A program made the position numbers and the translations under genes. Below, one piece after another: positions 6,471 to 32,305 of a stretch of DNA of 64,000 bases. The stretch is taken from the NCBI GenBank assembly GCA_044340325.1, contig JBIITV010000003.1, positions 2,734-66,733 on the forward strand. Reading direction: 5' to 3'. Origin of the DNA: Lysobacteraceae bacterium (GTDB lineage: Bacteria; Pseudomonadota; Gammaproteobacteria; Xanthomonadales; Xanthomonadaceae). The notes under the pieces were generated by a model. The model made no database searches. It saw nothing but the letters and a program-made list of their open reading frames with translations, and was not told the DNA's origin. How positions within the stretch are numbered: position 1 is the first letter of the stretch; each line of letters opens with the position of its first letter.

Positions 6471-6507
6471 TGGGGAGGGCCGGAGGCTGTGCTTGAAGAG
6501 GCATTAA

Positions 6508-6522
6508 TGTAATGTTATAACA
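6508..6522. promoter_or_regulatory. Zur-type operator between divergent operons
   Basis: TGTAATG-T-TATAACA matches the proteobacterial 7-1-7 Zur consensus (TGTTATDNHATAACA) and lies in an AT-rich intergenic patch. Flanking genes (COG0523, DUF1826, folE) are typical of zinc-limitation regulons. Confidence 0.8.
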
Positions 6523-6589
6523 TATGCATTGAGTCTGTAATCGTCCACCTGCCTCATGCCCTCCGGCACCGCTGATTTCAGAGCCCCGA

Positions 6590-6808: not shown

Positions 6809-7473
6809 GCGTGCAGCCGCGAACGATGTTGCCAGCCGAAGCCTGCGTCGGCTCGCTGCCGGAGTCGCTGTTGCGCATCCGTGAGCCTCAGCGCCGTCTC
6901 GCGATCTGGGAGCGCCGCATTCCTGCCGGTATCGTCGCTTGGCTGGGCCGCCACTTCCGGCCGCAGGACGACAGCGGCGGTTGCTCGTTCTTGCCTTCGG
7001 CCAATCCGGGTATCGCACTGGATGCGCTACTGGATCAGATCCTTCTCGCCGATGGTCTTGAGCCGCAGTCCTGTACGCCGTTCCAGCAGTGGCGGCGAGA
7101 CCTCCTGGATCTGATCGCACTCGCCAAAGAGATCGCACCGCAGACGCCCAGACTGATGCTGCGGCTGCAGCGTCTGGAGAATGCCGGCTGCCCGCTGTTC
7201 CACGTCGACCAGGTGCCACTGCGATTGCTCTGCGTCTATGTCGGTGCCGGCACCGAATGGTTGCCCGAAGATGCTCTTGACCGCTCGCGGCTGGGAACGG
7301 GTACCAACGCATCCGTGCGCGATTGGGCTGCAGTGCAGTGCATCGGCACCGGCCATGTTGCGATCATCAAAGGCGATCGCTATCCGGGCAATGTTGGCCG
7401 CGGTCTGGTGCATCGTTCCCCGGAAGCCTCCGCCGCGCAGCCCCGGATACTGGCTGCGATCGATTTCGGTTGA
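6805..7473 (+). CDS. DUF1826 domain protein
   Basis: CPLFHVDQVPLRLLCVYVGAGTEWL and KGDRYP...GLVHRSP motifs; ATGA coupling to the upstream gene. Confidence 0.85.
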   Translation: MSVQPRTMLPAEACVGSLPESLLRIREPQRRLAIWERRIPAGIVAWLGRHFRPQDDSGGCSFLPSANPGIALDALLDQILLADGLEPQSCTPFQQWRRDLLDLIALAKEIAPQTPRLMLRLQRLENAGCPLFHVDQVPLRLLCVYVGAGTEWLPEDALDRSRLGTGTNASVRDWAAVQCIGTGHVAIIKGDRYPGNVGRGLVHRSPEASAAQPRILAAIDFG

Positions 7474-7677: not shown

Positions 7678-10224
7678 GTGAGTCTTTCCGTTTTGCGCCG
7701 CCAGCGCACCCTCTCCTTGCGGGCGTGCATGGCTGCCCTGCTGACAGGGGCACTGCTGGCTTTGACGACCGTTTGCCTGCCGATGGCGGATGCTGCGGCA
7801 CAGACCCTGCGCCAGACCAAGGCGCCTTTCCATGACGCCTTCCGCCAGCTCGAAGGCGAAGACTGGCCAACGCCCACCGATTATCGCAACGCTGCAGGCG
7901 CACCGGGATATCGATACTGGCAGCAGAAAGTGGATTACGACATCCGCGCACGTCTGGATGAGTCTGCGAAAACCGTCGATGGCCAGGCGCGCATCACCTA
8001 TCGCAACCATTCGCCCGATCCATTGCCGTATCTATGGCTGTTGCTGGACCAGAACAACTACAAGCGCGATTCGCTCGCCGAGCTCACCCGCACGGTCAGC
8101 GGCGACGACATCGCCTTGAATGAAGTGCGCCGCGCCAAACGCTTTCAGGAGTGGGAAGGCGGTTTCGCCATCCGCGCAGTGCGCGATGCGTCGGGCCGCG
8201 CACTGACCTTCAGCGTGGTCGACAGTTTGATGCGGATCGAGTTGCCGCAGCCGGTGGCGGCCAACGGCGGCACTACCGAGTTCGAGATCGAATGGTCGTT
8301 TCCGATGGTCGAGAACAAAGTGATCGGTGGCCGCAGCGGCTATGAATGTTTCACCGCAAAGGGCGAGGACGGCAACTGCATTTTCCAGGGCGCGCAGTGG
8401 TTCCCACGGTTGGCGGTGTACTCCGACTACGAAGGCTGGCACAACAAGGCCTTTCTGGGATCCGGCGAATTCACCCTGGAGTTCGGCGACTACACCCTGG
8501 CCTTGACCGTCCCCGCAGATCACGTGGTCGCCAGTACCGGCGAGCTTCAAAACTCCGAACGGGTCTTGAACGCCGCGCAGCGCGAGCGCCTGCGGCGCGC
8601 ACGCGACGCGCGCGAGCCCGTCTATGTGGTCACCCCGGAAGAAGCCCTGGCTGCTGAAAAAACCAAGGTCGGCGGGGAAAAGACCTGGGTCTTCAAAGCC
8701 GACAATGTGCGCGATTTCGCCTGGTCGTCGTCGCGCAAATTCGTCTGGGATGCGCTGGGAGTACGTCAGAACTCCAGCGAGCAGCCGCTGGTCATGGCGA
8801 TGTCGTTCTATCCCAAGGAAGCCCGTCCGCTGTGGGATGGGTATTCGACCAAAGCGATCGCGCACACGCTCGACGTCTACTCGCGCTTCACGTTCCCGTA
8901 TCCGTACCCCACGGCGCAGTCGGTGAACGGCCCGGTCGGCGGCATGGAGTATCCGATGATCACCTTCAACGGCCCGCGCCCGGTGAAGGACAAGAAGACC
9001 GGCAACCTCACCTACACAGAGCGCGCGAAGTACGGTTTGATCACGGTCGTGATCCATGAGATCGGGCATATCTATTTTCCGATGATCGTCAATTCCGACG
9101 AACGCCAGTGGACCTGGATGGACGAAGGCCTCAACACCTTCTTGCAGTTCCAGGCCGAAAAACTCTGGGACGCGAAGTATCCGTCGCGTCGCGGCGAGCC
9201 CAAGGACATCGTCGAGTACATGGTTTCGAAGGATCAGGTCCCGTTGATGACGCAGTCCGATTCGCTGCTGCAGTTCGGCGCCAACAGCTACGCCAAGCCC
9301 GCCACTGCCCTGGTGGTGCTGCGCGAAACGGTGATGGGGCGCGAACGGTTCGACCGTGCCTTTCGCGAGTATTCGCAGCGTTGGTACATGAAACATCCAA
9401 CGCCCTACGATTTCTTCCGCACCATAGAAGAATCCTCCGGCATCGATCTGGACTGGTTCTGGCGCGGCTGGTTTTACTCCACCGATCACGTCGATATCAG
9501 CCTGGACAACGTCGTCCGCTGGCGGCTGGACAGCGGCCAGCCGAAGAAGGAATCGGACTGGCGGCGCGGACAGCGCGAACGGCAGCCTGAATCCCTGACC
9601 GCGCAGCGCAACGACGAAAAGACCGTTGTCCAGCGCGATCCCGCGACCCGGGACTTCTACAACGCCACCGACGAGTTCACGGTTACCGCCGAAGCCGAGC
9701 GCAAGGCTGCCACCGCACAGGAAGCGTTGACGCCGGAAGAACGCGAGGCGCGGGCGGTCATCGACAGCTTCTACCGTTTCACCTTCGCCAATCGCGGCGG
9801 TCTGGTGATGCCGGTGATTCTCAAGCTGGATTTCAGCGACGGTTCCGAGCGGATCTGGCGGATTCCGGCTGAAATCTGGCGGCGCAACACACAGCAGGTC
9901 ACCTGGGAACTGGTCACGGCCAAGACCGTTGTCCGCGCCGAAATCGACCCGCTGTGGGAGACCGCCGACGCCGATCGCGATAACAATGTGTACAGCCGCG
10001 AGATCGAGCCGCGCACGTTGAAGATCCGCAAGCCGGAAGAGATCGAGAACCGGATGAAGGATGCCGATCTCAAGGTCGAACCCGGTTCGCTGACGCCGTT
10101 GTCGGCACCGAAAGCCGACGCCAAGCCCAAGAGCAAACCGGCCGATTCGGAAAACAAACCTGTTGAGTCCAATGCCCCTGCAGCCCCTGCGCCTGCCGCT
10201 ATGACCGAAACCGCAACGCCATGA
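7678..10224 (+). CDS. M1 family metallopeptidase, secreted
   Basis: GGMEYP exopeptidase motif, VIHEIGH (HExxH), WMDEG third ligand, signal peptide. Start may be the ATG at 7726. Confidence 0.92.
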   Translation: MSLSVLRRQRTLSLRACMAALLTGALLALTTVCLPMADAAAQTLRQTKAPFHDAFRQLEGEDWPTPTDYRNAAGAPGYRYWQQKVDYDIRARLDESAKTVDGQARITYRNHSPDPLPYLWLLLDQNNYKRDSLAELTRTVSGDDIALNEVRRAKRFQEWEGGFAIRAVRDASGRALTFSVVDSLMRIELPQPVAANGGTTEFEIEWSFPMVENKVIGGRSGYECFTAKGEDGNCIFQGAQWFPRLAVYSDYEGWHNKAFLGSGEFTLEFGDYTLALTVPADHVVASTGELQNSERVLNAAQRERLRRARDAREPVYVVTPEEALAAEKTKVGGEKTWVFKADNVRDFAWSSSRKFVWDALGVRQNSSEQPLVMAMSFYPKEARPLWDGYSTKAIAHTLDVYSRFTFPYPYPTAQSVNGPVGGMEYPMITFNGPRPVKDKKTGNLTYTERAKYGLITVVIHEIGHIYFPMIVNSDERQWTWMDEGLNTFLQFQAEKLWDAKYPSRRGEPKDIVEYMVSKDQVPLMTQSDSLLQFGANSYAKPATALVVLRETVMGRERFDRAFREYSQRWYMKHPTPYDFFRTIEESSGIDLDWFWRGWFYSTDHVDISLDNVVRWRLDSGQPKKESDWRRGQRERQPESLTAQRNDEKTVVQRDPATRDFYNATDEFTVTAEAERKAATAQEALTPEEREARAVIDSFYRFTFANRGGLVMPVILKLDFSDGSERIWRIPAEIWRRNTQQVTWELVTAKTVVRAEIDPLWETADADRDNNVYSREIEPRTLKIRKPEEIENRMKDADLKVEPGSLTPLSAPKADAKPKSKPADSENKPVESNAPAAPAPAAMTETATP

Positions 10225-10757
10225 ATGCCATGCGCGCGTCGATCGCAAGAACCACGGCCATTGTTCTCATGCGCTGTATCGTTGTGCTGTCGCTGCTGGT
10301 GGTCAGTGGCATCGGGTTCGCGCATCGCGGCAACGACATGCTGAGCGTGATCGAGATCGACGCGGCGACCGGACATCTGCTGGTCACCCATCACTTCGCC
10401 GCTCACGATCTGGAACCAGCGCTGCTGCGGATCGCATCGGACGTGCAGCCCAGCCTGGATGACCCCGCTGCACAGGCGGCGTTGATCCGCTACACCGGCA
10501 CGAACTTCTCGCTGTCCGATGGCGGCGAACGAGCCGTGCCGCTGCGCTTCGAAGCGATCAAGCTCTCGGGCGACGATGTGCGGTTGGTCTATCGCGGCAC
10601 CCTGCCGCTGCCGGCGAAGACGCTGCAGATCGATTCGCGGCTGTTGAACGGTCTGTATCCGGACGAAACCCATCAGATCAACATCCGCCGTGCCGGCATC
10701 ACCCGATCGGTGCTGCTGCGCGGCGGGTCTGAAACGCAGCAGGTGCTGTTCGAATAG
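10221..10757 (+). CDS. DUF6702-like secreted protein
   Basis: Signal peptide ending GFA-H, then HHFAAHDLE and HQINI. Coupled to the M1 gene by an ATGA overlap. Confidence 0.7.
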   Translation: MNAMRASIARTTAIVLMRCIVVLSLLVVSGIGFAHRGNDMLSVIEIDAATGHLLVTHHFAAHDLEPALLRIASDVQPSLDDPAAQAALIRYTGTNFSLSDGGERAVPLRFEAIKLSGDDVRLVYRGTLPLPAKTLQIDSRLLNGLYPDETHQINIRRAGITRSVLLRGGSETQQVLFE

Positions 10758-11027
10758 TCTTCATGCCAGGATGAAGGCTTCAATGACTGGAGTGCGAATT
10801 CGCAGGCTCTCGGCGTTGCGTTTGAACAAAGCCTGCAACTGGCGATGGCTTCGATCCGAACTTGTGTTCAGTTCACTGTTGCCGTTGTTGGAAAGGAAAC
10901 GCCAGCGCGCGTCCATGCGCGCCAGCGCTCCCGAGGGCAGTACGTCAGCGTGCCGGCCTGCGATCCGCATGGCGCCTGAGCGCCCGTCGGTACGATCGGG
11001 CCGCAGCGCTGCTTCCGGTGCGAAGCG

Positions 11028-11936
11028 TCAGGGAATCTGGCAGTTCTTTTCATTGGGTGAGCAGACATATTCGTAGCGCAGCACGCGCGCGGTGGCGTTG
11101 ATGCCGCCGAGCCTGCGGCCGCTCGATCCCGGACCGGAGTTGCGCATGACGTTGGCGATGAACGCGTCTCCCTGCGCTACATCTCCCGTCTGTGGGCCGC
11201 ACCGAGCGTCGTTGCCCGACACCGCGCGACAGGAGGCCGTCGCGATGACGCGGCCGCCCTGGGTCACTGTGGTCGAGGTGTCCCAATCGTCGGCGACCAC
11301 GCGCACTTCGAAAGGCGCCGAACTCAGCGGAAGGGCGATGTCGTAGCCGCAGCGGTTGGCCGGCGATGTGGTCTGGCAGACCAGACCCGGGCCGCTCAGA
11401 TTCACGGTGAAGTTCTCGAAGATCATGCAGGGATAGCGGGTGTCGCGACACATCGGTGTGCCCGCAGGCCAGAAGGTCGGGCCGCGGCCCGACAGGGCCT
11501 GGTAGAGGGCGTTGATGCTGACCTGGCCCGAGCCTACCGCAGCGCTGACATATTCGCCGTAGGTGAACGCCGACGTCGCACTCGCGCCGTAGCCCATGCT
11601 GCCGAGCAGACTTTCCATCGACGCCCCGCGCACCGAGACCGCGATGTGGTCGAGGCCGGCATTGGTGTTGAGGAAGCCGTCGTGGACGATGGTTGCCGTC
11701 AATTCGCTCTGGTCGCCCTGGGCCCAGTTCGGCCCGTTGACGAACAGGACCGCGTCGTTCGGATCGCTGTAGGGGATCATGGGCGACTGGCCCACGGCGG
11801 CAACGCGCGAGACCTGGATCAGCTGCCAACTGCCGGCCAGCACAGGCAGGGCGAGCGCGAGCAGCAGGGTGGCGCCGGCTGCCACTGCGGCGGGACGACG
11901 CAGGGCCGACGGAAGTCTTGTGTTCAAGAGATTCAT
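11028..11936 (-). CDS. Hypothetical secreted Cys-containing protein
   Basis: MNLLNT...LLLALALPVLA signal peptide; natural codon usage; several Cys (CRDTRYPC, CQTTSPANRC, CSPNEKNC); AAGGA upstream of the start. Confidence 0.75.
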   Translation of the reverse strand: MNLLNTRLPSALRRPAAVAAGATLLLALALPVLAGSWQLIQVSRVAAVGQSPMIPYSDPNDAVLFVNGPNWAQGDQSELTATIVHDGFLNTNAGLDHIAVSVRGASMESLLGSMGYGASATSAFTYGEYVSAAVGSGQVSINALYQALSGRGPTFWPAGTPMCRDTRYPCMIFENFTVNLSGPGLVCQTTSPANRCGYDIALPLSSAPFEVRVVADDWDTSTTVTQGGRVIATASCRAVSGNDARCGPQTGDVAQGDAFIANVMRNSGPGSSGRRLGGINATARVLRYEYVCSPNEKNCQIP

Positions 11937-12022
11937 AGAGTCCTTCGCATGGATGGCCGGCCGTATGGACCGCAGGGGGAACCACGCGGCGCCTGGGGAT
12001 GTGCGCCGCATGGGAGCCCGTT

Positions 12023-12275
12023 ACGCGACGGGCTCGCATTCCTCAGCGGATTGCGAAGGAAAACAGGATCAGGCGCGAACGCCTGCGGGCCGCATCAGTC
12101 CGGCAATGCCGCAAGCCTTCTCGCGGACAGCGACATTTCCCTGAGATCCACGGCGGCAACATCGAGATACGCGCCATCGTCTGGAACGTTGTAGTCGAGC
12201 AATCCCATCGAGAACGTGTTGGCCCATTGTTCCGGCAAAGCGACCGAGTACAGCACGGCATTGTCCGGACCGACC
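12023..12275. repeat. Left copy of the mosaic direct repeat (blocks A/B/C) shared with 18108-18549
   Basis: A: 12023-12069 vs 18108-18154 (about 42/47). B: 12069-12086 vs 18295-18312 (18/18). C: 12091-12275 vs 18365-18549 (about 181/185). Confidence 0.95.
12095..12275 (-). pseudogene. 3' remnant of the secreted protein gene at 18369-19313
   Basis: Translates to VGPDNAVLYSVALPEQWANTFSMGLLDYNVPDDGAYLDVAAVDLREMSLSARRLAALPD, nearly identical to that gene's C-terminus; no 5' part present. Confidence 0.9.
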
Positions 12276-12369
12276 GATGCAGCTGCGGCCACCCACCATC
12301 AAGACGTCACCACGCAGTGGGTAGCGGCAAAGAAAAAGAGAAGGGCGCTGTAGAGGATGGCAATATTAA

Positions 12370-12384
12370 AGTTATGTTATAACG
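12370..12384. promoter_or_regulatory. Second Zur-type operator, upstream of the TonB-dependent receptor
   Basis: AGTTATG-T-TATAACG, same 7-1-7 pattern as 6508-6522, in an AT-rich patch. Confidence 0.72.
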
Positions 12385-12500
12385 TACTAGTTGACATGCA
12401 AGTATGCCGATCCCGCTTTCCAAGCCCGCCGAAGGAATGCCATCGGCGGTGCCGACCGATTCGATCGCGCAATTCATTCCGTTTCCTGCAAGAGGTCTTG

Positions 12501-14528
12501 ATGCAAAGGGTATTCACGAAATCAGCGTTGAGCATCTGTGTGTTGCTGGTGCCGGCCTCGGTGGTTGCCGCACAGTCCATCGCGCCGGATGATGCGAGCG
12601 CCGAACGCTTGGACACCGTCGTGGTGATCGGCGAGCGCGGCAAGCGCCAGGCCGATGCCGGCCTTGCCGGCTCGCTCGACACCATCGCCCGCAGCGCGCT
12701 GGAGTACGAGCATGTCGACGACACCAGCGAGCTGTTCAACAAGCTGCCGGGCGTGTATCTCTCGCGTTTCAACCAGGGACTGATCAATTCCGATCTATCG
12801 ATCCGTGGGTTTTCCGGTGATGGCGAAACGCCGCATGCCAAGTTGTTGATCGATGGCATTCCATCCAATCTGCACAATGGCTTCAGCGAGATGGATCAAT
12901 TGTTCCCGATCGGTATCGAGTCGATCGCGGTCTTCAAAGGCACCAGCGACCCGGGCGTCGGCTTGTTCAACATTGCCGGCAATTACCGCATCGAAACGCG
13001 CAGCGACACAGCCGCGCGCGAACTCGAGGTTTCGGTCGGCAGTTTCGATACCCGTGAACTGCAGGGCTATGCGGGTTTTGAGCACGGCGCACTGAAGCAC
13101 AGCTATTTCGCAGGCTATCGCGAGGCCGGCGGCTATCGCGACCATACCGATCTGGAGAAGTACGCGCTGTCGGGTCGGTGGTCCTATGCGCTGGGCGATC
13201 GGACAGCGCTGGCGTTGATCGCACGCGCCGCCGGTTATGAAGGCGATGCCCCGGGATATTTGACCAAGGCGGAATCCAGACGCCTACCGCAGTCGTCTGC
13301 TGAGTATGCCAATCAGGATGGTGGAGACAAACGCACGCGCCACGCCAGTCTGCATTTCGATCATCGATTCGGCGACACCATCGCGCTATCGGCGAAAGCC
13401 TATCTGCAGACCTTCGAGCGCGAGCGCTGGGTGCGCTTTTCCGCCGCCTCCGCGCTTCAGAACCGATACGACGATCAGGATCATCGCGGTGTGATCGCTA
13501 CGTTATCGTGGGACATCGACACGCGCTGGCGGCTGGATGGCGGTGTCGATGCCGAGTTCCAGGACATCATCGAGCAGCGGTTCGGAACGATCGGCCAGGT
13601 GCGGGTACGCGATCCTGCGAACGTGTTGCGCAATCGCGCCTATACATTCGACACGAGCGGTGCGTTCGCACGCATCGGTATGCGCGAAGAAGGCCGATAC
13701 GGCTGGAACGTGGCGATACGCGCGGACCGGATCGATGGCGATTACACGCAGTTCAACGCCGCAGGCGTACCGTCGACGCGCGAAATCTACCGCTTCGGCA
13801 CCATTCTGCAGCCAAAGTTCAACGGATTCGTCAATCTTGGCGAAGACCTGCAGCTGTTCGCAAACGCTGGGCGTTCCTTCCAGCATCCGTTCGGTGCGGA
13901 TGCCTATACTGCAGGCGATCGCGGTGCGCGCGATGTCTCCGTCAACGACGGTTGGGAGCTTGGCGCGAAATGGCGCTCGACGGATGCGCTGGAGCTGCGT
14001 CTGTCGTACTGGGAGCAGAAGGCGAAGGACGAATTCGTGGTGGTCGACGGCGTCGTGCAGAATGTCGGCCGCACCGCGCGCGATGGTCTGGACTTCGCAT
14101 TCAACTGGAGTGCCGGCGAGCGCTGGTACGTGTGGGGCAACTTGACTACGGTCGACAGCCGTATCGAGCGCCCGGCGCAGAACCGCGAAGCCTATATCGG
14201 CAATGCATTGCGCGGCGTGCCGACGCGGACCGGCTCGCTGGGTGTGGACTTCGATCCTACAGATGCGATCACCGCACGCGTGCATGTGGACCATCAGGGC
14301 GACTATCACGTCAACGAAGCCAATCTGGGTGGCCGTTTCGGTGACTACACACTCACCCATGCGAGTCTCGACTGGCGTCTCGGCTGGGGGACATTGGGAT
14401 TTCAGGTCCAAAATCTGTTCGATCGCTATTACGAATATGTGTTCGACTTCAGCGAGAACGGCACTGGAACCATCCATTCGCCGGGAGATGGTCGCGCGTT
14501 CGGCGTGTCGTTGAAGCTGGAGTTCTGA
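12501..14528 (+). CDS. TonB-dependent receptor, probably zinc-limitation induced
   Basis: Signal peptide, DTVVVIG TonB-box-like segment, plug (LSIRGF...LLIDGIP), terminal NLFDRYY...SLKLEF with C-terminal Phe. Confidence 0.93.
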   Translation: MQRVFTKSALSICVLLVPASVVAAQSIAPDDASAERLDTVVVIGERGKRQADAGLAGSLDTIARSALEYEHVDDTSELFNKLPGVYLSRFNQGLINSDLSIRGFSGDGETPHAKLLIDGIPSNLHNGFSEMDQLFPIGIESIAVFKGTSDPGVGLFNIAGNYRIETRSDTAARELEVSVGSFDTRELQGYAGFEHGALKHSYFAGYREAGGYRDHTDLEKYALSGRWSYALGDRTALALIARAAGYEGDAPGYLTKAESRRLPQSSAEYANQDGGDKRTRHASLHFDHRFGDTIALSAKAYLQTFERERWVRFSAASALQNRYDDQDHRGVIATLSWDIDTRWRLDGGVDAEFQDIIEQRFGTIGQVRVRDPANVLRNRAYTFDTSGAFARIGMREEGRYGWNVAIRADRIDGDYTQFNAAGVPSTREIYRFGTILQPKFNGFVNLGEDLQLFANAGRSFQHPFGADAYTAGDRGARDVSVNDGWELGAKWRSTDALELRLSYWEQKAKDEFVVVDGVVQNVGRTARDGLDFAFNWSAGERWYVWGNLTTVDSRIERPAQNREAYIGNALRGVPTRTGSLGVDFDPTDAITARVHVDHQGDYHVNEANLGGRFGDYTLTHASLDWRLGWGTLGFQVQNLFDRYYEYVFDFSENGTGTIHSPGDGRAFGVSLKLEF

Positions 14529-14530
14529 TC

Positions 14531-15268
14531 ATGCGCGCAGCGGATTCGAGGCCCATGGTCGTGGTCGAACGGTTGCATTTCGGCTACAGCGATACGATGG
14601 TGCTGGACGGGATCGATCTGCAGGTGATGCCCGGCGAGGTGTTTGCCATTCTCGGCGGCAACGGCGCCGGAAAATCCACGTTGCTGAATTTGATGCTGGG
14701 CCTGCTGCGCCCCAACGACGGCCGGATCTTGATCGGCGGCCGTGATCCGGCAGTCGATCCCGAAGGCGTTCGCCGCGTCCTCGCCTATGTGCCCGAAACG
14801 GCTGCGGTGTACCCGCACCTCAGCGGCATCGAGAACCTGCGTTACTTTCTCGACATCGCCGGTGTCCGTAAAGCCAGGGGCGACATCGTGGCTGCGCTGG
14901 AGACGGTGGGCCTGCAGTCCCAGGCATGGGACCGACGCGCCAGCGATTACTCCAAGGGCATGCGTCAGAAGCTGGTGTTGGCCTTGGCACTTCTGCGCGA
15001 CGTGCAACTGCTGCTGATGGATGAGCCGGGCTCTGGTCTGGATCCCGACGCGGATGCTCAGCTCGCGTCGCTGATCGCGAAAATGCGCGACGAAGGCCGC
15101 AGTGTGGTGCTGGTGAGTCACGATCTGCAAGCGGTGTCTGCGCTGGCGGATCGCTATGTGTTTCTCGCTGCGGGCGGGATCGCGCGTCAGGGGCGGGATC
15201 TGTCCGAGGTCGGCCGCGATCTTGCCGCGCTGCATGCGCTGTATGCGCGGCATGTGGTGCGCGAGTGA
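14531..15268 (+). CDS. ABC transporter ATP-binding protein (ABC-2/exporter class)
   Basis: GGNGAGKST Walker A, YSKGMRQK signature, LLLMDEP Walker B, VSHD. Confidence 0.95.
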   Translation: MRAADSRPMVVVERLHFGYSDTMVLDGIDLQVMPGEVFAILGGNGAGKSTLLNLMLGLLRPNDGRILIGGRDPAVDPEGVRRVLAYVPETAAVYPHLSGIENLRYFLDIAGVRKARGDIVAALETVGLQSQAWDRRASDYSKGMRQKLVLALALLRDVQLLLMDEPGSGLDPDADAQLASLIAKMRDEGRSVVLVSHDLQAVSALADRYVFLAAGGIARQGRDLSEVGRDLAALHALYARHVVRE

Positions 15269-16695
15269 GCATGTCCATGCTCGGACAGGCGCGAATCATC
15301 GCTGCTGCGGAATGCCGACGGCTGTTGCGGGATCGGTCTGTCGTGTATGCATTCGCCATCGTCCTGCTGCTCGGCGTCGTTTCGTTGGTCGTCACATATC
15401 AGCGTCACGCGCAGCTGCAGGCGCAACAAACCGCGTACGCGGCCATTGCCGACACGCAGTGGCAGGCGCAGCCGGACCGTCATCCGCATCGCGTTGTGCA
15501 TTCCGGCGATTTCGTATTCAAGCCGTCGTCGCTTCTGGCATCGTTGGACTGGGGTGTGGAATCGCACACCGGTCGATCGCTGTTTCTGGAAGGGCATCGG
15601 CAGAACACCGCCAACTTCAGTGAAACCGGACAGGCAGGCGCATTGCTGCGTTTCGGTCAACTCACACCTGCGATGGTGATCCTGCAGCTGTTGCCGCTGG
15701 TGCTGATATTCGCAGGGTTCGGCGCAGTCGCCGGCGAACGGCAATCAGGCGTGCTGCGCACCTTGATTGTCTCCGGTGCGCGTGGGCAGTCTGTGCTGGT
15801 CGGAAAGTACTTCGCGCTGCTGCTGCCCGCCGTTGCCGCTCTGTCGCCGCTGCCGGTCGCAATGATGTGGATGGGCGTCTCCGATACCGATCAACTGTTG
15901 CGCGCTGCGTTGCTGTGCGCGACCTATGCGGTGTATCTGGCGTTGTGGTGCGCGATGATTACGGCGATATCGTCGCTGTCGCGAAGTGCATATGCTGCGT
16001 TACTGACATTGCTGTGTCTATGGATGGTGTGGTGTGTGGCGATGCCGCGCGCTGGTCCGACCTTCGCTGCACTGTCGCATCCGGCGCCGAGCCGCGCGGT
16101 CATGGACATGCGCGCCGAGCAGGCGCTGAAGAAGATCGGCGACAGCCACAATCCGGACGATCCGCATTTCGCGGCTTTCCGTGCGCGGACGTTGGCCCGC
16201 TACGGTGTCGAGAGGATCGAGGATCTGCCGGTGAACTACGGCGGATTGCTGATGATCGAGGGCGAACGTCTTACCAGCGAGGTCTATGCACGCGAAGTCG
16301 AAGCGCTGAACGCGCGACATGCAGAACAGAATCGTCTGGTGGATGCATGGGCATGGTTCGCGCCAGCGATGGCGGCCGGTGTGGCTTCACGGTCGCTTGC
16401 GGGCACCGACGCAGATCATTACCGTCATTTCGTGGCAGCAGCCGAGCGCCGGCGCTATGCGCTGGTGCAATCGCTGAACCATCTTCACGCCGAGAAAATC
16501 GCCTACCGCAACGATCGCGAACAGCGCCTGCACGCCGGTCACTGGGATAAGGTGCCGCGCGAGGAATACGCCGCGCCAGGTCTCGGATTCGCCGCGGCAA
16601 GGCTATGGCCGGCATTGTTGGCGCTGCTGCTGTGGTCCGCGCTATCGGGTGCGCTGTTGCTCTGGTGCGGGCAGCGTCTGGCGCGCAGCGCATGA
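15265..16695 (+). CDS. ABC-2-type permease, DUF3526-like
   Basis: Multiple TM helices, AGERQSGVLRTL motif, periplasmic QPDRHPHRVVHSG and SHNPDDPHF. Confidence 0.85.
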   Translation: MSMSMLGQARIIAAAECRRLLRDRSVVYAFAIVLLLGVVSLVVTYQRHAQLQAQQTAYAAIADTQWQAQPDRHPHRVVHSGDFVFKPSSLLASLDWGVESHTGRSLFLEGHRQNTANFSETGQAGALLRFGQLTPAMVILQLLPLVLIFAGFGAVAGERQSGVLRTLIVSGARGQSVLVGKYFALLLPAVAALSPLPVAMMWMGVSDTDQLLRAALLCATYAVYLALWCAMITAISSLSRSAYAALLTLLCLWMVWCVAMPRAGPTFAALSHPAPSRAVMDMRAEQALKKIGDSHNPDDPHFAAFRARTLARYGVERIEDLPVNYGGLLMIEGERLTSEVYAREVEALNARHAEQNRLVDAWAWFAPAMAAGVASRSLAGTDADHYRHFVAAAERRRYALVQSLNHLHAEKIAYRNDREQRLHAGHWDKVPREEYAAPGLGFAAARLWPALLALLLWSALSGALLLWCGQRLARSA

Positions 16696-18080
16696 TTCGG
16701 TCGCCTTCGATGCAGGAGATGATGATCCACGAGCTTCGTCTGCTGTTGCGCTCGCAATGGGTACGGGCGGCATTGCTGGCGACTGCCGTCGCTGTGGCGG
16801 TTTCGCTGTGGCTGGGTTGGGCGGTCGTGGCGAAACGTCAGCTCGATGTCGAGCAGGCGTCTGCGCTGCAGTCCGCACAGCATGACGATTATCTGAGCCG
16901 CTATCCGCAGGGTTTGCCGGATGCAGGCGATGTGGCCTACTACACATTCCACGTGGTTTCCGATTCGCCAGGCCCATTGGCGTGGTTGTCGCTGGGCGAT
17001 CGCGATACGCGACCTGCGGTGCAGCGGATACGGATGCTGGCCCTGCAGTCGCAGATCTACGACGGTGAGGCCAACAATCCGGAGCAGTCCGCTGCGGGCA
17101 CATTCGATTTTGGGTTCGCGGTGGTATTCCTGCTGCCGCTGCTGTGCATCTGCCTGTGCCACGACTTGGCTACCCAGGACCGCGAACATGGGCGCGACAA
17201 GCTGCTGTCGTCGCTGATCGCGTCCACGCGCAGCTACTGGTCGCGGCGGATCGCGGCGCGCTATCTGTTGGCGTGCGCTGCCGCTCTGTTGCCGTTGTTG
17301 CTGTTTTGCGCAGCGACCGGCAATTGGCCGCCGGCGCTGTGGCTGGTTATCCTGGCTGTCGCGCTGTATGCCGCCGTGTGGACGGCGGCCTGCGCATGGA
17401 TCAGTCTGCGGTGGCGGACATCCACATCGATGGCCAATGCAATGGCCATGCTGGCGCTGTGGGTCGCGACCACCATGGCGCTGCCCGCGCTGGCGGGTTC
17501 GCTGGTCGCGCTGTGGTCGCCGATGCCGTCGGGCAGCGAAATCGCGCTGGCGCACCGAAAACTTTTGAACGATGCGTGGGACCTGCCGAAGGAAGCCACA
17601 TTCGAGGCGTTTTTCGACGCGCATCCGGAGTGGCGCGGGACGCCGCCGGTGACCGGAAGATTTCATTGGAAGTGGTACTACGCCTTCCATCATGTGGCCG
17701 ACCTGCACGTCGAACCGAAAGTAGCTGCGGCCGATGCGGCGATGCGCGCCCGCGCCCGTTCCGGCGCGCGTATCGGCCTGCTGTTACCGCCGGTGGCGAT
17801 GCAGCGACTGATGGATGGTTTCGCCGACAACGGCATGGAGCGCCTGGCCGATCAGCGCGCGGCGGTGCGCGCATTCCATGATCGGCTGCGCTTGCATTTC
17901 TATCCGTTCCTGTTCGAAGAGCGACCATTCACTGCGGAGGATTTTGCGGCGATGCCCGTTCCGCATGCCGCGCCGGATCGGATCCGGCACGCACCTTTGT
18001 CGTGGATCGGGCTGATGCTGTTGTTGTCGCTCGTGCTGATCGCACTGTCGCGACAAATCTCGCGGCGATCATTCGCGTGA
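16692..18080 (+). CDS. Second ABC-2-type permease, DUF3526-like
   Basis: FDFGFAVVFLLPLL, DREHGRDKLL, FHWKWYYAFHH; ATGA coupling to the first permease. Confidence 0.85.
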   Translation: MIRSPSMQEMMIHELRLLLRSQWVRAALLATAVAVAVSLWLGWAVVAKRQLDVEQASALQSAQHDDYLSRYPQGLPDAGDVAYYTFHVVSDSPGPLAWLSLGDRDTRPAVQRIRMLALQSQIYDGEANNPEQSAAGTFDFGFAVVFLLPLLCICLCHDLATQDREHGRDKLLSSLIASTRSYWSRRIAARYLLACAAALLPLLLFCAATGNWPPALWLVILAVALYAAVWTAACAWISLRWRTSTSMANAMAMLALWVATTMALPALAGSLVALWSPMPSGSEIALAHRKLLNDAWDLPKEATFEAFFDAHPEWRGTPPVTGRFHWKWYYAFHHVADLHVEPKVAAADAAMRARARSGARIGLLLPPVAMQRLMDGFADNGMERLADQRAAVRAFHDRLRLHFYPFLFEERPFTAEDFAAMPVPHAAPDRIRHAPLSWIGLMLLLSLVLIALSRQISRRSFA

Positions 18081-18107
18081 ATGCGGGTATTGTCGAACCC
18101 GCTGGCC

Positions 18108-18549
18108 ACGCGACGGGCTCCCTTACCTCAGCGGTTTGCGGAGGAAAACAGGATTGGCAGCCTGGTGATGCAGCCGTGGATGGGTGTGTCGGCGAAGCTA
18201 GCGCGTAAGCGATTGCGTCGCCGTGAGCACGTCCGGGCATGTGCTGGATGTACGAACTGAAATACCTCCTTGATGGAGGCATTTCAGCAAACTGTCAGGC
18301 GCGAACGCCTGCTTGCCGGCGCTCCGTACGAAGACGCGCGCAACACCGATGCATCTTGGCGGATCGCATCAGTCCGGCAATGCCGCAAGCCTTTTGGCGG
18401 ACAGCGACATTTCCCTGAGATCCACGGCGGCAACGTCGAGATACGCGCCATCGTCTGGAACGTTGTAGTCGAGCAATCCCATCGAGAACGTATTGGCCCA
18501 TTGTTCCGGCAAAGCGACCGAGTACAGCACGGCATTGTCCGGACCGACC
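18108..18549. repeat. Right copy of the mosaic direct repeat
   Basis: Same A/B/C blocks, order and orientation as 12023-12275, but with 140-bp and 52-bp spacers that are absent or reduced on the left. Confidence 0.95.
18257..18287 (-). terminator. 13-bp stem hairpin downstream of the minus-strand secreted-protein genes
   Basis: Minus strand ctgaaatgcctcc-atcaa-ggaggtatttcag. The single mismatch is a G-U pair only on the minus strand. The U-tract is weak. Confidence 0.5.
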
Positions 18550-19313
18550 ACTTCGAGTACGGAATCGATGCTGCGGTAGAAGCCGTCGCCCGCATAGAAA
18601 GACCCGTTGACGCTCTGGGTCCAGCGCAGCGCGATGCCGGTTGCGCCCGATGGGCTTTGCAGCGGAATGATGGCCACCACGTCATCGATCAGCGCCGGTT
18701 TGGTGCCGTCCGGAATGGCGCGCGATTCGATCACTTCGAGTCTCGCCGGGCCTTCCTTGTCGCGCTGGATCTTGCGCACGCGGTAAATGGCCGATGCGGA
18801 TTTGGCCGTGCCCGGGTCTGTCTGCGTGCTGCGGTTGAAATCCAGCTGCACCACGTCGAACCAGTCGTCCTGGTTGGCGGGCGATACATCCCTGATCTCG
18901 AAACGCAGCGTGTATTCGACGCGGAGGCCCTGCTCTGCGACGGCCGGCATCCATGGAAGCGCGACGATGCCGAAGCCGCTCTTCGGCGCGTACAGCGGAC
19001 TCAGCTGCAGATTCCCGTCGGACGTGTGGCCCGTCAGAATCGGCAGTCGATCCTGGCATTTGCCGGTGCTCGGCTGCCGGGATGTTGTCGCCCGCTGCGC
19101 CGGTGCGATGAGTCCGATCAGGTCCTGATGGCCGGCGAACGTGTAGCTGGCTTTGAACCACAGCGGGGTTGCGGAGGCAGATCCCGAGACAGATGCGGAC
19201 GCAGTGCGGCCATCAAGCGGGTCCAGCTCGACAGGTTCCATCGGGCATGGCGGGAAGGCCAAGGCAGTCGGAGCCCAGGCCAGCAGCAGTGCGAGGGGGA
19301 GATGGCGTTTCAT
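18369..19313 (-). CDS. Hypothetical secreted protein, paralog 1 (mature N-terminus FPPCP)
   Basis: MKRHLPLALLLAWAPTALA signal peptide; beta-rich; roughly 60% identical by eye to 19381-20328. Confidence 0.85.
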   Translation of the reverse strand: MKRHLPLALLLAWAPTALAFPPCPMEPVELDPLDGRTASASVSGSASATPLWFKASYTFAGHQDLIGLIAPAQRATTSRQPSTGKCQDRLPILTGHTSDGNLQLSPLYAPKSGFGIVALPWMPAVAEQGLRVEYTLRFEIRDVSPANQDDWFDVVQLDFNRSTQTDPGTAKSASAIYRVRKIQRDKEGPARLEVIESRAIPDGTKPALIDDVVAIIPLQSPSGATGIALRWTQSVNGSFYAGDGFYRSIDSVLEVVGPDNAVLYSVALPEQWANTFSMGLLDYNVPDDGAYLDVAAVDLREMSLSAKRLAALPD

Positions 19314-19380: not shown

Positions 19381-20328
19381 TCAGTCCGGAAATGCTGGAA
19401 GCGTACTGGCGGACAGCAGCATTTCGCTGAATTCGACAGCGGCATTTCCGGGACGGGCGCTGTCGCCGGGAACGTTGTAGTCGAGCAATCCCATCGAAAA
19501 CGTATTGGCCCATTGTTCCGGCAAGGCGACCGAATACAGCACCGTGCCGCTGGGACCGACCACCTCGAACACGGAATCGATGTTTCGGTAAATGTCACTG
19601 CCCGCCCCGAGAAATCCGTTTTCGGCCTGTGTCCAGCGAAGCGCGATGGGGGTCGCGCCATGTGCGCTCTGCAGCGGAATGACGGCAACGACGCGATCCG
19701 GCAGCGCCGTATCTTGGCCGGAATTCGAGGCGTTGGTGTTTGAGGACATCCGCGATTCGATCACTTCGAGCGTCGCCGGGCCTTCCCTGTTGCGCTGGAT
19801 CTTGCGCACACGGTAAATGGCCGATGCCGATTTGGCCGATAGCGGCCCTGTCTGCGCGCTGCGGTTGAAATCCAGTTGCACCACGTCGAGCCAGTCGCCC
19901 CGCTGGGCCGGCGACGTATCCGCGATCTGGAAGCTCAGCGTGTATTGGAGGCGGAGGCCGTGGCCTGCGACGGCCGGCATCCATGGAAGCACGACGATTC
20001 CGAAGCCGCCTTTGGGCGCATACGCCGGACTGAGCTGCAGAAGGCCGGTGGAGGTGTGGCCCTCTGGAATCGGTAGTGTGCCATCGCACAGGCCGGTGCC
20101 CGGCTGTCGGGGTCCCTGCAATACCAATGAGATCAGGCGGATCATGTCCGGATGACCGACGAGCGTGTAGCCGGCTTTGAACCACAGCGGGGTTGCCGAT
20201 GCAGATGCGGGCGCAATGGGGCCATCAAGCGGGCCCAGTTCGACTGGTTCCAGCGGGCATGGCGGAAAGGCCAGGGCGGCCGGAGCCCAGGCCAGCAGCA
20301 GTGCGAGGGGGAGGTTGCGTTTGAACAT
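19381..20328 (-). CDS. Hypothetical secreted protein, paralog 2
   Basis: MFKRNLPLALLLAWAPAALA-FPPCP; shares IYRVRKIQR and SVALPEQWANTFSMGLLDYNVP with paralog 1. Confidence 0.85.
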   Translation of the reverse strand: MFKRNLPLALLLAWAPAALAFPPCPLEPVELGPLDGPIAPASASATPLWFKAGYTLVGHPDMIRLISLVLQGPRQPGTGLCDGTLPIPEGHTSTGLLQLSPAYAPKGGFGIVVLPWMPAVAGHGLRLQYTLSFQIADTSPAQRGDWLDVVQLDFNRSAQTGPLSAKSASAIYRVRKIQRNREGPATLEVIESRMSSNTNASNSGQDTALPDRVVAVIPLQSAHGATPIALRWTQAENGFLGAGSDIYRNIDSVFEVVGPSGTVLYSVALPEQWANTFSMGLLDYNVPGDSARPGNAAVEFSEMLLSASTLPAFPD

Positions 20329-31270: not shown

Positions 31271-32305
31271 ATGCATCAGAGCGCCACCGTCAACCGTCGC
31301 ATCCTGCTCGACCGCCGCCCCGTGGGCGCGCCGACCGCGACCGATTTCCGCATCGAAACCGCAGCGGTGCCGCAGCCAACGGCGGGCGAGCTGCGGCTGC
31401 GCACGCTGTTTCTCTCGCTCGACCCCTACATGCGCGGACGCATGAGCGATGCGCCCTCTTACGCCGCGCCGGTGGGCATCGGCGAGGTGATGGTGGGCGC
31501 GACGGTGTCGGTGGTGGACGCTTCGGAACATCCGGATTTCGCGCCCGGCGACCGTGTGCTCGCCATGTCTGGCTGGCAGGACTACGCAATCTCCGACGGC
31601 AGCGGCCTGATGCGGTTGCCGAAGGACGATCCGCAGCCGTCGCGCGCGCTGGGGGTGTTGGGCATGCCCGGGTTCACCGCGTACATGGGGTTGCTCGACA
31701 TCGGTCAGCCGCAGCCCGGCGAGACCGTTGTGGTTGCGGCGGCCAGCGGCGCCGTCGGTTCGGCGGTGGGCCAGATCGCGAAGCTCAAGGGCTGTCGCGC
31801 GGTGGGTATCGCCGGTGGCGAAGCGAAGTGCCGGTATGTCGTCGACGAACTCGGCTTCGACGCTTGCATCGATCACCACGGCGACGATCTGCCGGCGCGA
31901 CTTGCGGCGGCGTGCCCGAAGGGCGTCGATGTGTATTTCGAAAACGTCGGCGGTGCGGTGTTCGACGCGGTGCTGCCGCTGCTCAATGCGCGCGCCCGCG
32001 TCCCGGTGTGCGGCCTGATCGCCAGTTACAACAACACCGCGCTCCCGCCAGGTCCGGATCGACTCGGCCTGCTGGTCGGCACGTTGCTGCGCAAACGCAT
32101 CAGGATGCAGGGCTTCATCATTTTCGAGGACTATGCGCCGCGTTATCGCGAGTTCGCCACCGCGATGCGGGCCTGGGTCGACGATGGCAAGGTGAAATCG
32201 CGCGAAGACATCGTGCAGGGACTGGAGCACGCGCCCGACGCGTTCATCGGCCTCTTGCAGGGCAGGAACTTCGGCAAGCTGGTGATCGGGGTCGCCGAGG
32301 CATGA
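31271..32305 (+). CDS. NADP-dependent oxidoreductase (CurA/YncB, prostaglandin reductase-like)
   Basis: LSLDPYMRGRM, GMPGFTAY, AASGAVGS, YFENVGG, NFGKL. Confidence 0.92.
   Translation: MHQSATVNRRILLDRRPVGAPTATDFRIETAAVPQPTAGELRLRTLFLSLDPYMRGRMSDAPSYAAPVGIGEVMVGATVSVVDASEHPDFAPGDRVLAMSGWQDYAISDGSGLMRLPKDDPQPSRALGVLGMPGFTAYMGLLDIGQPQPGETVVVAAASGAVGSAVGQIAKLKGCRAVGIAGGEAKCRYVVDELGFDACIDHHGDDLPARLAAACPKGVDVYFENVGGAVFDAVLPLLNARARVPVCGLIASYNNTALPPGPDRLGLLVGTLLRKRIRMQGFIIFEDYAPRYREFATAMRAWVDDGKVKSREDIVQGLEHAPDAFIGLLQGRNFGKLVIGVAEA

Follow-up and report, generated by a model that had tools for sequence, protein, structure and literature searches.

Duplicated gene end on both sides of a metal-uptake cassette in a Lysobacteraceae genome: a candidate scar of recombinase-free capture

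How does an uptake operon come to lie between two copies of a neighboring gene's end when no mobile-element enzyme appears to have placed it there? The question is raised by a 64,000-nucleotide stretch of DNA from a Lysobacteraceae bacterium (GenBank assembly GCA_044340325.1, contig JBIITV010000003.1, positions 2,734 to 66,733), which we call the window and whose positions are used throughout. In it, a Zur-type operator-like box, a TonB-dependent receptor gene, an ATP-binding cassette (ABC) ATPase gene and two DUF3526 permease genes (perm1 and perm2), together the cassette, adjoin the gene Y1, which is followed by its tandem paralog Y2. The 3′ end of Y1 and the DNA downstream of it occur a second time on the far side of the cassette, next to a gene that we call X (Table 1). 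Recombination scars of this kind are already known, and the structure adds one more case. The reading that we favor, holding it with about as much doubt as conviction, is that it records an anchor-mediated capture in which two alleles of one chromosomal slot merged and the cassette was the incoming partner.

The repeat comprises the three blocks described in the original prediction, A of 47 bp, B of 17 to 18 bp and C of 185 bp, in the same order and orientation in the left and right copies. From one C block to the other the period is 6274 bp, and 5819 bp (12276-18094) separate the copies, which span 266 to 455 bp with mismatches and indels and have a longest common perfect tract of 57 bp. Across the 4.75-Mb assembly, A and B are found at these two places only, as is the motif TCAGCGnnnTnCGnAGnAAACAGGATCA, and C matches elsewhere only the paralog Y2, at about 82% identity. 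Homology extends about 9 nt to the left of the limit noted earlier, through a GC-rich hairpin (12014-12035 versus 18095-18120), and it stops sharply at 12275|12276, which corresponds to 18549|18550. Protein-level searches beyond 12275 found no degraded continuation of Y.

The left copy had been described as a dead 3′ fragment of the gene at 18369-19313, and 58 of its 59 residues are indeed identical to the C-terminal residues of Y1. A structure model of Y1 (pLDDT, the predicted local distance difference test score, 77; pTM, the predicted template modeling score, 0.81) shows a single beta-sandwich, with weak matches (TM score about 0.3) to lectins and PL7-type lyases, and so backs the general fold class only. 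Because the residues encoded by C′ make up the last beta-strands of one jelly-roll/beta-sandwich domain, the modeled fold predicts that the fragment should not fold alone. A 65-residue open reading frame (ORF) over C′ was considered as a stand-alone domain and judged unlikely, its residues being the final strands of that single sandwich. Within C, a 74-bp tract of Y1 (18457-18530) is 96% identical to Y2 (19469-19542), whereas the rest of the two genes is about 80-85% identical; this tract may reflect gene conversion between the tandem paralogs.

Read along the Y strand, the repeated DNA runs from the 3′ coding end of Y1 through a short spacer, the stem of block B, a T-run within the motif of block A and the GC-rich hairpin. 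In the left copy, an intrinsic terminator is scored for the stem together with ATCCTGTTTT. The earlier claim that this copy lacks the terminator hairpin does not hold: the copy keeps the native stem B′ and its T-run, and the hairpin seen earlier on the right is the last hairpin of a 141-bp insert that splits the native terminator there. The mosaic look of the repeat arises because the right copy carries this insert and a 48-bp indel, which corrects the mosaic reading to a separate small mobile element plus an indel. The intact motif-hairpin element sits on the dead fragment beside X, and the version on intact Y1 is disrupted.

The motif TCAGCGnnnTnCGnAGnAAACAGGATCA and an adjoining, covarying GC hairpin also lie downstream of Y in six congeners (G008, G011, G012, G015, G017 and G024), about 100-160 nt 3′ of Y in five of them and about 0.8 kb away in G017. 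This conserved non-coding element corresponds to 12014-12069 of the window and to loci L034, L035, L036, L037, L040 and L048. Because it belongs downstream of Y in these species, the repeated segment is, by sequence comparison, native Y-flank DNA and not a part of the cassette. The 3′ end of Y1 and its terminator provide the homologous anchor that a scar of illegitimate recombination calls for. In G015, five tandem units of the GATCCTGTT type are found downstream of Y.

The congeners inspected share a syntenic block of genes for an S46 peptidase, an extracytoplasmic function (ECF) sigma factor, a Ser/Thr kinase and Y. Downstream of Y they have anything from a spacer of about 0.6 kb to more than 9.5 kb of unrelated genes, and here the slot holds about 16.6 kb. 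Some congeners have about 0.6-1.2 kb after Y, beyond which lie homologs of the genes immediately to the left of this window; in G020, an S15 peptidase gene directly follows Y. Gene-order comparison thus identifies the space just after the Y terminator as a variable slot in the genus. A receptor-like gene of about 715 codons, roughly 55% identical to G000 C22:18370-19593, lies directly 3′ of Y in G009 (L031), G010 (L033), G012 (L036), G022 (L032) and G024 (L035), and outer-membrane receptors may therefore be recurrent cargo of the slot.

The cassette itself is foreign to this position. Its marker, perm1, is absent from 23 of the 24 congeneric species, and the content of the slot varies by species, as expected of a foreign insert. 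Occurrence across the order is patchy (27 of 301 genomes), and this genome holds one copy only. The closest cassette relative, in a Lysobacteraceae metagenome-assembled genome (L073), has a receptor 70% identical to this one and the same operator-like core upstream, in a different chromosomal neighborhood; its neighbors are syntenic with another contig of this genome. No CobW or DUF1826 gene is found within 10 kb upstream in L073; the cassette thus also travels by itself. A conserved unit (12371-18080; L071, L073-L090) is made up of the receptor, the ABC ATPase and the two DUF3526 permeases, and it adjoins CobW and DUF1826 genes in Methylophaga, Methylophilus, Methylotenera and some Lysobacterales. 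A foreign compositional signal was looked for and rejected, the tetranucleotide composition of the cassette being typical of the genome (56th percentile), which fits a donor within the gene pool of the species. The operator-like boxes at 12371 and 6512 are the only two matches in the genome with at most one mismatch. A literature search for DUF3526 found no paper.

The differences between the two copies are unevenly distributed. In the coding part we observe 4 differences over 181 nt, three synonymous and one a K-to-R replacement (dS 0.07, dN 0.0075, for synonymous and nonsynonymous divergence), versus 9 differences over 81 nt (11%) and three indels in the non-coding part. Coding and non-coding divergence differ (Fisher p = 0.004), the excess of synonymous changes has p = 0.047, and neutral in-situ decay of a duplicate gives p of about 0.02-0.09. 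The pattern fits two alleles that would have diverged while both were functional genes.

From these observations we infer a mechanism, the existence of two parental alleles and a polarity. The species would have held two alleles of the slot, one with X after the Y1 terminator and the other with the receptor-ABC cassette and its Zur-type box. A merger of the two would take a single homologous exchange together with a single illegitimate join, at 12275|12276, the sole novel junction of the structure. Such a process would be homology-facilitated illegitimate recombination; a Campbell-type single crossover of a circle is an equivalent description. In the polarity that we favor, the cassette would have entered accompanied by a Y1 3′ end and terminator of its own, and the resident Y1 3′ end and terminator (12014-12275) would have been displaced to the far side of the cassette. 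If alleles merged in this way, the duplicate is therefore a by-product of capture and not the footprint of a transposition. The original prediction that the cassette arrived, or was trapped, through a recombination event that duplicated flanking DNA is supported in part, by the duplication of the native Y1 flank, the accessory nature of the cassette and its other context in a relative; the incoming side may have been the cassette or the block containing X.

The layout has counterparts among known systems. Its topology matches, by analogy, the "sequential displacement" model of Kirchberger et al. 2017 (PMC5361080), in which incoming modules shift older 3′ ends downstream in type VI secretion system (T6SS) effector-immunity, Rhs and contact-dependent inhibition (CDI) loci; homology-facilitated illegitimate recombination is the subject of de Vries and Wackernagel 2002 (PMC122324) and Prudhomme et al. 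2002 (PMC122325), both cited by Kirchberger et al. As in those cases, foreign DNA lies beside a conserved anchor gene with no recombinase of its own, one end is homologous and the other apparently illegitimate, and the old 3′ end would have been orphaned downstream. The differences are that the cargo here is a metal-uptake operon instead of a toxin-immunity pair, that the displaced fragment hardly differs from the new 3′ end, where those loci have a different variable tail, and that the event here is reconstructed from a single genome rather than observed. Campbell-type integration of a circle by single crossover would likewise leave homology, insert and homology in direct orientation, reversible by the same recombination, but the locus has no replicon or vector backbone, and a circle would first need an illegitimate join of 18549 to 12276. 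Like genomic islands at gene 3′ ends, the locus has its intact target gene at one end of the insert and, at the other, a displaced partial copy of the gene's 3′ end; unlike those with att repeats, it has no integrase and no tRNA gene, and an imperfect repeat of 266-455 bp in place of a short exact core. It also resembles the units of gene duplication-amplification, as a 6.3-kb unit with a selectable uptake function between direct repeats, although its repeats are short, their longest perfect tract being 57 bp.

Several points weigh against the capture that we favor. Its polarity is not distinguishable from its mirror image, and in the collections searched there is no conspecific genome or contig with a parental allele or an empty site. 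The nearest relatives of Y1 are about 50% identical, the other contigs found are all 100% identical to the window, and there is no parent sequence against which to score microhomology at 12275|12276. The substitution statistics rest on just 13 differences, and gene conversion could give an old duplicate the appearance of a young allele. Finally, the better-preserved terminator and hairpin are on the dead copy, which no model accounts for simply. An unlikely, if credible, alternative keeps the mechanism and reverses the polarity: the cassette would have been resident beside the Y1 terminator, possibly adjoining the CobW-DUF1826 zinc genes, and a block of M1 peptidase, DUF6702 and X genes would have come in from the left, carrying part of the Y1 terminator and 3′ end of another allele, its right end joined illegitimately at 12275|12276. 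The conserved order CobW-DUF1826-receptor-ABC-permeases in Methylophaga, Methylophilus and Methylotenera speaks for this possibility, since here the DUF1826 gene ends at 7473 and 4.8 kb of unrelated genes and the fragment intervene before the receptor, and relatives carry both M1 peptidase-DUF6702 and X at other sites. It would require a shared left anchor that cannot be shown, however, and the L073 cassette has no such zinc genes within 10 kb upstream.

The junction 18549-to-12276 is exactly the one that a tandem duplication of 12276-18549 would give, and a duplication in situ, in which templated break repair inserted a 266-bp duplicate of the Y1 end at a distance of 6 kb, or the interval was duplicated in tandem and one cassette then lost, followed by decay and by conversion that kept C similar, would find a partner in the possible Y1/Y2 conversion inside C. 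We consider it quite improbable. A tandem duplication would leave two cassettes and only one is present; a second, precise illegitimate deletion would be required; the left copy also lacks the 141-bp element and the 48-bp stretch, and non-coding divergence is five times the coding, with three of the four coding changes synonymous. The intact gene on one side and the displaced 3′ fragment on the other, that is, a gene-3′-end repeat with a regenerated gene, would also suit the remnant of a site-specific island at the end of Y1, whose repeats would be attL and attR and whose integrase would have been lost or supplied in trans. Pfam scans of genes called in the interval from 1 to 29 kb, however, detect no integrase, recombinase or transposase domain, in keeping with the earlier remark that no such gene is nearby, nor was an insertion sequence (IS) copy found there, and the window contains no tRNA gene. 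The long repeat has scattered mismatches and no conspicuous short identical core, and relatives of the cassette in other contexts have no such repeats, which together make an island very unlikely. A composite transposon or IS insertion does not fit, the flanks being gene-end DNA with no transposase among the genes scanned. An assembly artefact that fused two strain haplotypes is hardly credible. The source genome is a fragmented draft of 269 contigs (4.75 Mb), presumably a metagenome bin, and two short contigs end inside block C; the misassembly that might have undone the structure is nonetheless largely refuted. A 137-kb JGI contig spans everything and agrees in gene order, down to the small ORF over C′ (by exact-protein look-up), and four short contigs assembled with other assemblers from three other samples (ENA ERZ27272098, JGI 3300034103 and Logan SRR27419349) match the window at 100% identity. 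Of these, L051 and L052 cover 8718-13107 and thus the entire left copy with both flanks, and L053 and L054 extend from perm2 through A, the insert and B into C. Both junctions recur in four independent metagenome assemblies, and JGI 3300059473 is also among the samples that contain the sequence. The position 12275|12276 also lacks the shared sequence at which an assembler could switch paths.

If a capture is what it records, the locus is a clean and well-bounded natural example of operon capture without a mobile-element enzyme; it would show how a gene-end duplicate can arise as a by-product, and it points to a variable slot next to the conserved ECF sigma-kinase module. The flanking direct repeats (C and C′) are those expected of an amplifiable unit, and recombination between them could in principle remove or multiply the 6274-bp unit. 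With a longest perfect tract of only 57 bp, the RecA-dependent excision or amplification under zinc stress that the original prediction envisaged would be expected to be rare; a change of copy number under zinc limitation, if it occurred, would be a natural case of adaptive amplification. A broader proposal, to which we attach little probability, is that the Y terminator region is a recurrent, recombinase-free capture site, with cargo added beside the ECF sigma-kinase-Y genes and older cargo pushed outward. The 16.6-kb patchwork would then be a stack made of the Zur divergon, the M1 peptidase-DUF6702 pair, X and lastly the cassette, and the 6.3-kb unit nearest Y1 would be its youngest layer, still able to excise or amplify.

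Table 1. Features of the duplicated gene end, the cassette and their surroundings (window positions unless a contig is named)
Feature	Position	Strand	Description
Second Zur-type box	6500-6525, match at 6512		TAATGTAATGTTATAACATATG; divergent promoter, folE-phoD-cobW-sod / 72-residue ORF-DUF1826
X	11028-11936	minus	302-residue secreted protein, adjoins left repeat copy; start per JGI gene call
Left outer hairpin	12014-12035		GAGCCCGT-tacgcg-ACGGGCTC; GC-rich; outer end of duplicated segment
Blocks A′ and A	12023-12069 and 18108-18154		47 bp, 42/47 identical (89%); A′ contains conserved motif TCAGCGnnnTnCGnAGnAAACAGGATCA
Native Y terminator, left copy	12060-12085	minus	intact; stem CAGGCG-TTCG-CGCCTG (B′) and tail ATCCTGTTTT
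Blocks B′ and B	12070-12086 and 18296-18312		17 bp, 100% identical (18 bp with shared preceding T); B is native terminator stem
Block C′	12091-12275	minus	dead Y1 3′ fragment: last 59 codons and stop at 12095-12097
Blocks C′ and C compared	12091-12275 and 18365-18549		185 bp, 181/185 identical, 4 mismatches, 97.8%
Junction	12275-12276		sole novel (apparently illegitimate) junction; Y1 homology ends, cassette-side DNA begins
Zur-type operator-like box	12371-12386		GTTATGTTATAACGTA; upstream of receptor gene
TonB-dependent receptor	12501-14528	plus	Pfam Plug and beta-barrel; start per JGI gene call
ABC ATPase	14531-15268	plus	domain scan
perm1	15265-16695	plus	ABC-2/DUF3526 permease 1; domain scan
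perm2	16692-18080	plus	DUF3526 permease 2; domain scan
Right outer hairpin	18095-18120		degenerate relative to left copy: two mismatches and a 4-bp indel
141-bp element	18155-18295	plus	MITE-like (see text), structured, dispersed family; between native terminator stem and T-run
48-bp stretch	18313-18360		right copy only, between B and C; GC microhomology at its edges
Block C	18365-18549	minus	within intact Y1
Y1	18369-19313	minus	314-residue secreted protein, concanavalin-like beta-sandwich fold, fast-evolving, genus-specific
Y2	19381-20325	minus	tandem paralog of Y1, secreted
Other 141-bp-family copies, G000	C201:23917-24054, C32:4449-4583, C189:35270-35409, C125:6828-6966
Other 141-bp-family copies, G000	C130:8879-9000, C87:6550-6695, C154:31661-31752 and 32078-32168

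The left copy provides a precise empty site for the 141-bp element of the right copy, with a boundary ambiguous by 1 nt (a T). In its dispersed copies and its presence or absence at a site the element resembles a miniature inverted-repeat transposable element (MITE), although it is without the terminal inverted repeats and target-site duplication of that class, since its ends are not inverted repeats and no target-site duplication is found at 18154/18296. The family has at least 12 copies in this genome and from 0 to 25 or more per congener, and further members are present in other families of the order, in three genomes. Its members fold into four hairpins, with 13 base pairs supported by compensatory changes among copies; a search of Rfam with the element gave no match. 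On its sequence features, the element could be MITE-like, related to repetitive extragenic palindromic (REP) elements or a multi-copy small RNA.

To the left of the repeat lie X, a 69-residue ORF and genes for DUF6702, M1 peptidase, DUF1826, FolE, PhoD, CobW, superoxide dismutase and S15 peptidase. X has no Pfam or NCBIfam match, and its homologs are absent from all 24 congeners; those that were found (74-78% identity) are located elsewhere, and of three contigs inspected, two place them between a radical-SAM gene and 2OG-Fe oxygenase/rpmB-rpmG. That X might be a diverged paralog of Y was tested and rejected. The M1 peptidase gene occurs in three congeners, in other contexts. Neither Y1 nor Y2 belongs to a Pfam family. 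The idea that older scars of the same kind lie elsewhere in the window was also tested and rejected. Among the copies of the roughly 140-nt element, six have an extra 5′ hairpin, TGAAAYACCTGC-GACA-GCAGGTTTTCAG, and the last hairpin of the element resembles a bidirectional terminator.

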